A stretch of 5,875 nucleotides of DNA from a virus (Duplodnaviria; Heunggongvirae; Uroviricota; Caudoviricetes). The first letter of the stretch is position 1, and the number at the start of each line of letters is the position of its first letter. This document shows positions 2,509 through 3,663 of the stretch, one piece after another. Both the position numbers and the translations under genes were made by a program. Where the stretch lies: the IMG/VR virus record IMGVR_UViG_2529292977_000021; one strand, given 5' to 3'. The notes under the pieces are model-generated. The model had not been told where the DNA came from and searched no databases. It was given only the letters and a program-made list of their open reading frames with translations.

Positions 2509-2575
2509 CTGGTGCCGAACCTTCCTCCGGATATAATCTGTGGTTCCCAATCGACAGAACCAGAGGAGGTTCGAC
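2509..2575 (+). promoter_or_regulatory. Candidate promoter plus SD for the plus-strand ORF (TATAAT 2532-2537; AGGAGG 2564-2569)
   Basis: Perfect -10 hexamer, weak -35 (ctggtg at 2509-2514, 17-bp spacer), consensus SD 6 nt before ATG 2576. Lies in the gap between the unknown minus ORF and the initiator start at 2497. Confidence 0.3.
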
Positions 2576-3031
2576 ATGTATTTTTTGAAAAGCCTTTATC
2601 AGGCTCATGTATTAAATGTTGCAGCAACAAACCGCTGGTGTAACAGCCCCGAAATGCTCCCGGATTACAGAGCCTGGCTGCGCGCCGAAACATACCTTCG
2701 TCTCGACATATTGATTAGCGAACTTCAAAAAGAGACTGCATCCATTCATAACCTTCAGGGTATCGACGCTGTTCGCATTCTGGTATCGCGCCATAGTGCT
2801 CTCTCAATAATTGAAGTGCGTCATCTCTCTTTTTCTGAACTGATTTTCTTGCTTCAACCAGCTCTGGAATCAGCGAATATCCCGCCGGAAGTGATCCAAT
2901 ACCCACCTCATGTTGACGAGCAGTTACAAGATGTGCCATACAACCAGCGTGCTGGATTGACTCCCTGCTCAGAGGCTGAATGGGATCACTCTCTGCTGAA
3001 GAAATACCAAGATTTGTATAATCCTCAATAA
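2576..3031 (+). CDS. Hypothetical protein (151 aa), antisense to the replication operon; candidate moron gene
   Basis: ATG at 2576 preceded by a perfect AGGAGG (2564-2569) with a 6-nt spacer and a perfect TATAAT (2532-2537) upstream. Codon statistics are weaker than the overlapping minus ORF (position-1 purine about 47%). No clear terminator after 3031. Mutually exclusive with the 2715..3224 call unless both are genuinely expressed. Confidence 0.3.
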   Translation: MYFLKSLYQAHVLNVAATNRWCNSPEMLPDYRAWLRAETYLRLDILISELQKETASIHNLQGIDAVRILVSRHSALSIIEVRHLSFSELIFLLQPALESANIPPEVIQYPPHVDEQLQDVPYNQRAGLTPCSEAEWDHSLLKKYQDLYNPQ

Positions 3032-3224
3032 GCCCGGCACACGCTTCTGCATCAGCCAGCTTTATTCTGGTTTCCTTGCGCTGTTCTCTGGCTGACAAAC
3101 GCCAGAGCAGCGCATTAGCTTTATGTATCAACCACTCTGCCAGCTCCACATCAGATAAACCGCCACGCCAGATGTGCGGACTGTTTTCGTAAACGCTCAG
3201 TGTCAATTTTTTGTCATTACTCAT
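2715..3224 (-). CDS. Hypothetical protein (169 aa from ATG 3224; ORF extends to GTG 3275) between the cII-like gene and the initiator
   Basis: Same strand as the operon; ATG at 3224 is 14 nt after the ydaT-like stop. Codon position 1 is purine-rich (about 58%, G about 34%), a coding-like signature. No recognisable motif and only a weak SD. Overlaps an antisense ORF with better expression signals, so the call is uncertain. Confidence 0.5.
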   Translation of the reverse strand: MSNDKKLTLSVYENSPHIWRGGLSDVELAEWLIHKANALLWRLSAREQRKETRIKLADAEACAGLIEDYTNLGISSAESDPIQPLSRESIQHAGCMAHLVTARQHEVGIGSLPAGYSLIPELVEARKSVQKKRDDALQLLREHYGAIPECEQRRYPEGYEWMQSLFEVR

Positions 3225-3237
3225 ATTTATTACCCAA

Positions 3238-3663
3238 TTAATGCACAGCCAGAGTGTTTCCTGCCGGGCCACCACGATTCATCTGATCGAACAGAACGAT
3301 CGCTGATGCAACGAAATCATCAATATCTTTCACCAGCCGTTCCTTCGTCTCTACCAACTCCCGAAAATAAGCGGAACTGTGGCTGCGCATTCGGGCCACC
3401 AGCGGAGGCGGCATCGCTTTTTCGATCGCTGGTAACAACGCCTGAATTTTTTTAACCGCATCAGGAGTGTCTTTCTCCACCCAGCGGAAAATTTTCTGAG
3501 TATTGCGAGCCATGGCTTCCGGATGGCTGTCGTCATACAGTTCCGGGAACGTCATTCCCAGCTCGAAATACGCTTTGGTAATTTTCGCAGCCGGTACTTT
3601 TTCGCCGTCCGGATGCGCCCAGACATTCATCGCCATGCGGATGTGTTCATGCTTGATTTTCAT
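3238..3663 (-). CDS. ydaT: YdaT-like protein (CII-like regulator of Rac-type prophages)
   Basis: 141 aa beginning MKIKHEHI, matching my recollection of the YdaT N-terminus and size (about 140 aa). Sits directly downstream of the Cro-like gene with an ATGA start/stop overlap (ATG 3663..3661, upstream TGA 3662..3660). Confidence 0.8.
   Translation of the reverse strand: MKIKHEHIRMAMNVWAHPDGEKVPAAKITKAYFELGMTFPELYDDSHPEAMARNTQKIFRWVEKDTPDAVKKIQALLPAIEKAMPPPLVARMRSHSSAYFRELVETKERLVKDIDDFVASAIVLFDQMNRGGPAGNTLAVH

Follow-up and report, generated by a model that had tools for sequence, protein, structure and literature searches.

Long antisense coding overlaps in bacteria and phages are still disputed; most of the proposed cases are young open reading frames (ORFs) supported mainly by expression. 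In the pop, asa, laoB and ano cases of Escherichia coli O157:H7, a young and taxonomically restricted ORF lies inside an older annotated gene, and the support has come mainly from RNA-seq and Ribo-seq. Antisense overlapping genes of this organism have been studied experimentally for pop/ompA (PMC7103648), asa (PMC6294744), laoB (PMC5810103), ano (PMC5960689) and three pairs (PMC9927249). Here we describe an antisense ORF pair in a viral sequence of 5,875 nt (IMG/VR record IMGVR_UViG_2529292977_000021, hereafter the window), which is the immunity and replication region of a lambdoid prophage of E. coli O157:H7. The pair consists of a plus-strand and a minus-strand ORF (the plus and minus genes below), and the segment that carries it, 2510..3224, is probably a mobile cassette of enterobacterial lambdoid prophages, with two real convergent genes sharing their C-terminal ~105 codons. 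As in the O157:H7 pairs, opposite-strand coding ORFs share several hundred bases and annotation pipelines keep one of them. Unlike those pairs, the two genes lie tail to tail with neither embedded in the other, each has a conserved non-overlapping N-terminal domain, and the pair, known here from sequence alone, is co-conserved down to ~30-45% identity and moves between prophage contexts. The evidence it offers is of the opposite kind: deep co-conservation, selection in two frames, mobility of context and one confident fold.

Three other systems invite comparison. Morons of lambdoid phages are independently transcribed accessory genes inserted between operon genes. The plus gene resembles them in being accessory, absent from lambda and Rac at this position, directed against the flow of the early operon, equipped with its own -10-like element and a strong Shine-Dalgarno (SD) sequence, and retained in cryptic prophages. 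It differs from them in that no terminator was found for it and in forming a fixed pair with an operon-sense gene, with an overlap of 260-320 bp. In lambda, pO between cII and O gives rise to oop, a short non-coding RNA that ends at a terminator of its own and is antisense to the 3' end of cII. The putative start site in the window likewise stands beside the initiator gene and points back to the cII-like ydaT, but this position is the sole resemblance, as the plus unit codes for a conserved 151-aa protein, has no evident terminator and no Rfam match, and the cassette also occurs without a nearby cII-like gene. In P22, the strand that encodes sieB reportedly also gives esc, a shortened in-frame version of it, and the sas antisense RNA is said to be non-coding. 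The likeness to that lambdoid accessory locus, with its overlapping products and the reciprocal antisense control proposed here, is functional only and speculative; no sequence or structural similarity was found.

The ORF pair and its annotation

The coding features of the pair are as follows.

2576..3031, plus strand: plus ORF, ATG at 2576 and stop at 3031, 151 aa, ECs1072 family (NF033230)
2715..3224, minus strand: minus ORF, ATG at 3224 and stop at 2715, 169 aa, phrog_8304
2715..3031, both strands: dual-coding antisense overlap, 317 bp, C-terminal ~105 codons of each gene
2576..2714, plus strand: plus-only coding part, containing PDYRAWLRAETYLRLD (2660..2707)
3032..3224, minus strand: minus-only coding part, containing the motif SPHIWRGGLSDVELAEWL..ANA

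The coordinates, the 317-bp overlap and the shared codon position 1, all given in a preliminary description of this DNA, were borne out by reading the sequence, as were the positions of TATAAT (2532..2537), AGGAGG (2564..2569) and the 6-nt spacer before the ATG. The two ORFs are thus intact, lie on opposite strands and share far more than 90 nt, and both have a start codon and a ribosome-binding site. The same description credited the minus ORF with better codon statistics; in a codon log-likelihood trained on the remaining genes of the window, the two are level at 0.179 (plus) and 0.180 (minus) bits per codon. Within the overlap, these two frames are positive and free of stops, and the other four are negative with 4-8 stops each. 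The plus and minus ORFs are the sole positive, stop-free frames in their regions.

Each ORF is already known singly, the plus ORF in RefSeq and the minus ORF in PHROGs. RefSeq/PGAP annotates only the plus ORF (WP_000273724.1, "ECs1072 family phage-associated protein") and leaves 3032..3237 blank, while PHROGs holds only the minus ORF (phrog_8304), the plus ORF being without a PHROGs match. Since each resource records one strand, every current annotation of the cassette is incomplete. As RefSeq already names the family of the plus ORF (NF033230), the suggestion that it is undescribed does not stand. A literature search found no paper describing the pair, and a microarray table (-2.13-fold) is the one place in the searchable literature that mentions "ECs1072". 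In the published CP-933P gene map, the interval from paaR2 to o lists only ydaS and ydaT; no other gene is described between paaR2 and o, the segment 2510..3224 is not discussed, and the regulatory model built on the map leaves it out (PMC8630535).

Selection on the two frames

Comparative analysis shows both frames to be kept by what appears to be purifying selection, inside as well as outside the overlap. Outside it, the evidence comes from the E. coli-type variants, which comprise only five lineages: variable sites at codon positions 1/2/3 amount to 0.24/0.13/0.51 in the plus-only part (2579..2714; chi-square P=2.6e-4) and, at minus positions 1/2/3, to 0.14/0.14/0.33 in the minus-only part (3032..3221; P=0.009). 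The ratios of nonsynonymous to synonymous change (dN/dS; Nei-Gojobori, five lineages) in these unique parts are 0.18 for the plus and 0.13 for the minus frame, each the lowest of the six frames. In the overlap the codon periodicity of variable sites in the same variants is flat (0.27/0.23/0.31).

Codon position 1 of both frames lies at coordinates equal to 2 mod 3, with position 1 facing 1 and position 2 facing 3. In this geometry each synonymous third-position change hits the second position of the partner, and doubly synonymous sites do not exist; synonymous distances in the overlap are about half those of the unique parts. An OLGenie-style partition of the overlap gave dNN/dSN of 0.39 for the plus frame (bootstrap confidence interval 0.23-0.67, P=0.0006) and dNN/dNS of 0.53 for the minus frame (0.29-0.96, P=0.02), with estimators and a bootstrap that are simplified and ignore phylogenetic non-independence. 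For the minus frame, it is the outer thirds of the overlap that carry the signal (dNN/dNS 0.40-0.41), the middle third being at ~1.0.

Two shuffling experiments bear on the overlap as well. With one protein held fixed and synonymous codons or codon order shuffled, the opposite frame was stop-free in only ~0.1-7% of trials per lineage (36% in one direction for one Salmonella clade), whereas in the real sequences it is stop-free across the overlap in 13 of the 13 lineages tested in this way. Among pairs of less than 60% identity, the alternative-frame identity in the overlap is 0.35 for the minus and 0.38 for the plus frame, against shuffle nulls of 0.17 and 0.16. This is 2.0-2.3 times the null, compared with 1.14 and 1.33 times in the unique parts, which have no ORF in the antisense frame and a higher reference-frame identity than the overlap. 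Such a low excess in the control excludes residual shared ancestry and the constraint of the partner frame alone as the source of the signal.

Homologues, neighbourhoods and one-sided loss

Protein searches recovered intact full-length relatives of each ORF, down to ~50% identity in Salmonella, and scans of IMG/VR added further lineages at 31-45% identity to the proteins of the window. Both ORFs are intact, with a tail-to-tail overlap of 257-323 bp, in ~17 distinct lineages, which is a modest number of independent ones. Interruption of one frame in homologues had been named as the observation that would decide between the strands; both frames survive in these lineages, so that neither strand can be dismissed, and in place of the either/or choice first envisaged, the evidence favours both as protein-coding. 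Three loci (L045-L047) were found through the N-terminal motif of the minus protein alone, and their intact plus frame is thus not an effect of ascertainment; the other loci were partly ascertained through called proteins.

The cassette occupies at least four prophage neighbourhoods, so its presence and position vary as in a moron. It lies between the cII-like gene and the initiator in the window, L047, L084-L086 and L091, directly after cro in L045, L046 and L113, in the early-left region between integrase/Cox and exonuclease VIII of Salmonella prophages (L002-L009, L089 and L090), and beside the repressor gene in L087. In all of them the minus-type gene runs along the surrounding operon and the plus-type gene is opposed to it. 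The cassette was not found in 50,697 deposited phage genomes, searched at both the DNA and the protein level, two scans of GTDB representative genomes gave no match, and a metagenome scan returned near-identical copies only. The plus-type family is a small prophage family, whose records here come only from E. coli, Salmonella and IMG/VR viral contigs.

Small changes within the cassette respect the frames. A 21-bp deletion in the overlap of L091, from window position 2724, leaves both proteins 7 residues shorter with both frames kept, and the plus protein of this locus has 144 aa because the deletion is in frame. In L085 and L086 a 3-bp insertion in the plus-only part likewise preserves the frame.

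Loss falls on one side of the pair. Every lineage examined has an intact plus-type gene, and apart from one deletion remnant (strain BA92) no lineage combines a disrupted plus gene with an intact minus gene. L005/L006 lack the minus gene, which is frameshifted in L044/L083 and in L087/L088 and has its N-terminal domain replaced in L110/L111; in genome H78 (CFSAN027343), a natural 1-bp deletion at window position 3191 frameshifts it after codon 11 with the plus protein identical. Four more E. coli genomes (H79-H82) give the same 1-bp shorter match, H78 being the one that was inspected.

We note two further features of these loci. L005/L006 is a Salmonella Minnesota prophage with two tandem plus-type paralogues (L005 3001..3462 and downstream; L006 166..627 and 719..1174). 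In L110/L111 (1532..1987, minus strand), the antisense frame is open for 456 nt over most of the plus gene.

The encoded proteins

Profile searches and structure prediction, which had been proposed as a check, were run for both translations. The plus ORF matches NF033230 at 105.7 bits (E=2.1e-30; curated cutoff 70 bits) over profile positions 3-141 of 142 and is thus a member of this NCBIfam family. AlphaFold, from an alignment of 8 sequences, predicts an all-alpha fold of about nine helices (predicted local distance difference test, pLDDT, 89.5; predicted template modelling score 0.86), and the overlap-encoded residues 47-151 are within the confident part. No known structural relative of this model was found in PDB or BFVD. 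A profile search over 1.84 billion representative proteins returned only 23 clusters, and the most conserved motif of the family, PDYRAWLRAETYLRLD, is encoded in the non-overlapping N-terminal part.

The minus ORF matches phrog_8304 over its whole length (positions 1-169 of 169; 398.8 bits, E=4.2e-120) and is a member of that family. It points the same way as the early operon of ydaS, ydaT and the initiator, its ATG lying 13 nt beyond the ydaT stop, and its SD is weak in the window and of the GGAGG type in most non-E. coli lineages. The most conserved motif of the family, SPHIWRGGLSDVELAEWL..ANA, also belongs to the non-overlapping N-terminal part, while two further conserved motifs, Y..LG[IL]S....DPI.PLS.EAI and P.GY..[IL]P[ED]L, are encoded within the overlap. 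The AlphaFold model of this protein is poor (pLDDT 55), with one moderately confident long helix at residues 25-72 and segments of low confidence over much of what the overlap encodes.

Neither protein matched a known family of anti-phage defence or toxin-antitoxin systems: Pfam gave no family for either at E<=0.1 and PADLOC none at E<=1.

The plus-gene leader and candidate promoter

About 75 nt upstream of the plus ATG are conserved in nearly all lineages according to leader alignments. The following elements are recognised in the window.

2510..2528, plus strand: conserved box 1 of the leader alignments, TGGTGCCGAACCTTCCTCC (consensus TGGTGCCGAACCTyCC)
2532..2539, plus strand: -10-like element, TATAAT (2532..2537) overlapping TAATCT (2534..2539)
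2564..2575, plus strand: SD AGGAGG (2564..2569) and spacer TTCGAC

Box 1 lies 13 nt upstream of the opposite-strand initiator ATG (2497); it is absent from the deep lineages L109, L110 and L115 and present in most others. TAATCT aligns with a conserved TAnnCT hexamer, which is TAGCCT or TATCCT in other lineages and stands ~30-50 nt before the plus ATG in every lineage; the scan of the window gave no matching -35. The SD is part of a nearly invariant string, GAACC-N6-GGTTCGAC-ATG, and is kept in all lineages, even at ~30% protein identity (in L091 it reads AGGTGG); immediately before the plus start the leader string is ACAGAACC-nn-AGGAGGTTCGAC-ATG. The same leader also precedes each of the two tandem plus-type paralogues of L005/L006.

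The SD and start are where they were first described, but the "full promoter" was not borne out: the -35 at 17 bp is CTGGTG, and a scan for the sigma-70 consensus gave 0 promoters in 2300..3500. No terminator-like site occurs on the plus strand in 3031..3400, the first being a weak one at 3401..3418 inside ydaT. A terminator of its own, as expected of a moron, was thus not found for the plus gene. The plus ORF does look like an independently expressed, moron-like gene, as originally suggested, in its opposite orientation, its own start signals and its retention, and we infer that the plus gene is probably accessory and moron-like, running against the direction of the early lytic operon.

The core of box 1 (TGGTGCCGAACCTTCC) and the SD region (AGGAGGTTCG) are reverse complements of each other, with the TAnnCT hexamer between the arms, and RNAfold pairs the two (-32.5 kcal/mol, 91 nt). 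Reading this repeat as an RNA structure proved unsupported: no compensatory changes were seen across lineages, the arms are almost invariant, and the variants of L087 and L046 weaken the pairing. Box 1 may be a promoter element, an operator or a structure in the RNA of the early operon.

Control of the plus promoter by YdaT was also considered. The one perfect TTGATT-N6-AATCAA in the window coincides with the published PRE site (3653..3670), and such control is thus unsupported. Exactly at the stop of the minus ORF (2711..2728), TTGATTAGCGAACTTCAA equals the YdaT operator consensus with 2 mismatches; matches of this quality number 4 in the window against 3.8 expected, which is the chance level.

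Alternative explanations

Several points weigh against two real genes. The E. coli-type comparison is small, the selection estimators are simple, and the minus-frame signal in the overlap is modest and weaker than that of the plus frame. The minus model is too poor for a fold search. The minus gene is disrupted in five lineages with the plus gene intact in all five, which indicates that it is dispensable. The sigma-70 consensus scan yields neither promoter nor terminator for the plus unit, a functional clue sought in Pfam, PADLOC, PDB and BFVD was not found, and the reciprocal regulation and functional coupling considered below are inference only.

The explanation that survives best beside that of two genes is that only the plus gene functions in the overlap, the minus ORF being either an N-terminal region of ~65-95 residues with a tolerated read-through tail or, as a whole, a decaying remnant in cryptic prophages. 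RefSeq annotates the plus gene alone, and this reading would fit the five one-sided losses, the varying length of the minus protein (148 to 169 aa across lineages), the pLDDT below 50 at residues 73-119 and 148-169, the dNN/dNS of ~1.0 in the middle third and a standard dN/dS of 0.75 for the minus frame in the overlap; yet the same frame is stop-free over 257-323 bp in ~17 lineages despite a chance of only ~0.2-8% in each (36% in one clade), its identity in the overlap is 2.0 times the null against 1.14 times in the plus-only control region, and it carries conserved motifs there. Together with a dNN/dNS below one overall and in the flanking thirds, and with the L091 deletion that keeps both frames, this makes a minus tail of little function unlikely. 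The asymmetry of the two models and the one-sided loss suggest that constraint on the shared DNA is stronger in the plus frame, which is possibly also the older of the two readings.

Very doubtful is a plus unit that acts mainly at the RNA level, as an oop-like antisense transcript over the minus gene and the 3' end of ydaT that damps cII-like expression, with the protein secondary. Its position and direction do match those of lambda pO/oop, and since no plus-strand terminator-like site precedes 3401..3418, a plus transcript would run antisense through the minus gene and into ydaT; a possible SD-sequestering stem in the conserved leader is a further point in favour. The plus product, however, is under strong protein-level constraint and has a confident predicted fold, with which the purely regulatory transcript considered in the preliminary description does not agree. 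The same cassette structure occurs in Salmonella prophages without a downstream cII-like gene, Rfam has no match for the unit and the leader stem shows no covariation. RNA-level and protein-level roles are not mutually exclusive.

That only the minus ORF is a gene, of the early operon from ydaT to the initiator, with the plus ORF a shadow whose TATAAT, SD and ATG are fortuitous, is hardly credible and is already effectively refuted by conservation: the minus ORF suits the direction and packing of the operon, matches phrog_8304 in full and faces a unit without a complete promoter or terminator in the scan, but L005/L006, without any minus ORF, have an intact plus-type gene followed by a tandem paralogue behind the same leader, no lineage has a broken plus gene, even where the minus protein alone led to the locus, its part outside the minus ORF has a dN/dS of 0.18 and strong third-position periodicity, its SD and leader are invariant at ~30% protein identity, its model reaches a pLDDT of 89.5 from 8 sequences, and its dNN/dSN in the overlap is 0.39 (P=0.0006).

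Proposed mechanism

Under the preferred reading of two convergent genes, the plus gene would have a promoter of its own and be expressed without PR, in the lysogen most likely, as a moron-like accessory gene that is retained, including in the cryptic prophage studied here. The minus gene would be made only when the early operon fires and, in its decay in cryptic prophages, behaves like an early lytic gene. Since the two units meet head-on over at least 260 bp and the early operon is also transcribed across the plus promoter, transcriptional interference and antisense RNA probably make their expression reciprocal. The two proteins could perhaps be functionally coupled, for instance as a lysogen-expressed factor and its lytic-phase partner or antagonist, which is speculative.

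A bolder version is offered tentatively, and we hold it to be rather unlikely. The cassette would be an old mobile dual-coding module whose coupled proteins serve opposite states of the life cycle, such as an exclusion, toxic or host-modulating factor of the lysogen and an early-lytic antagonist, and the shared DNA and colliding transcription would form an interlock that forces mutually exclusive expression and co-inheritance. The locus adjoins regulators that have been studied experimentally and structurally in a tractable pathogen, so both dual coding and a possible interlock between lysis and lysogeny are directly testable.

Setting of the locus

The neighbouring genes of the minus strand are listed below.

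3660..3962, minus strand: YdaS/Cro-like gene
3238..3663, minus strand: YdaT/cII-like gene
1400..2497, minus strand: replication initiator, phrog_1701, DnaD-like
647..1393, minus strand: DnaC-like ATPase

The minus-strand order is thus YdaS/Cro-like, YdaT/cII-like, the minus ORF (2715..3224), initiator and DnaC-like ATPase; the plus strand of the window carries a CI-like repressor, a RelB-family antitoxin and a ParE toxin. The neighbouring proteins match the solved structures of PaaR2 (7NKV), PaaA2 (3ZBE) and YdaT (8BT1, 3C4R), and the region is therefore the published paaR2-paaA2-parE2 / ydaS-ydaT immunity region. Positions 2400..3400 are 100% identical to hundreds of O157:H7 chromosomes.

A long alternative start of the initiator at ATG 2608 (ORF 1400..2608, 402 aa) was considered and rejected. 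The extension 2498..2608 traverses the conserved plus-gene leader, and the peptide "HVEPP", which recurs upstream of unrelated genes in other loci, is the reverse translation of the conserved SD region; the extension is therefore an artefact of leader conservation, and the initiator start is likely ATG 2497.

O157:H7 strain PV15-279 is a near-perfect match over window positions 3..3674, with complete divergence beyond. The two therefore differ in the allele of the ydaS/paaR2 immunity module, which is joined on between ydaS and ydaT, and position ~3674, just right of the YdaT operator (3653..3670), resembles a breakpoint of mosaic recombination at the PRE site. Against the same strain, a 6-bp indel at 1998..2003 falls within a CCTGTT/CTGTTC repeat coding for the QEQEQEQE tract of the initiator, and it moves RefSeq-derived coordinates by 6 leftward of that point.

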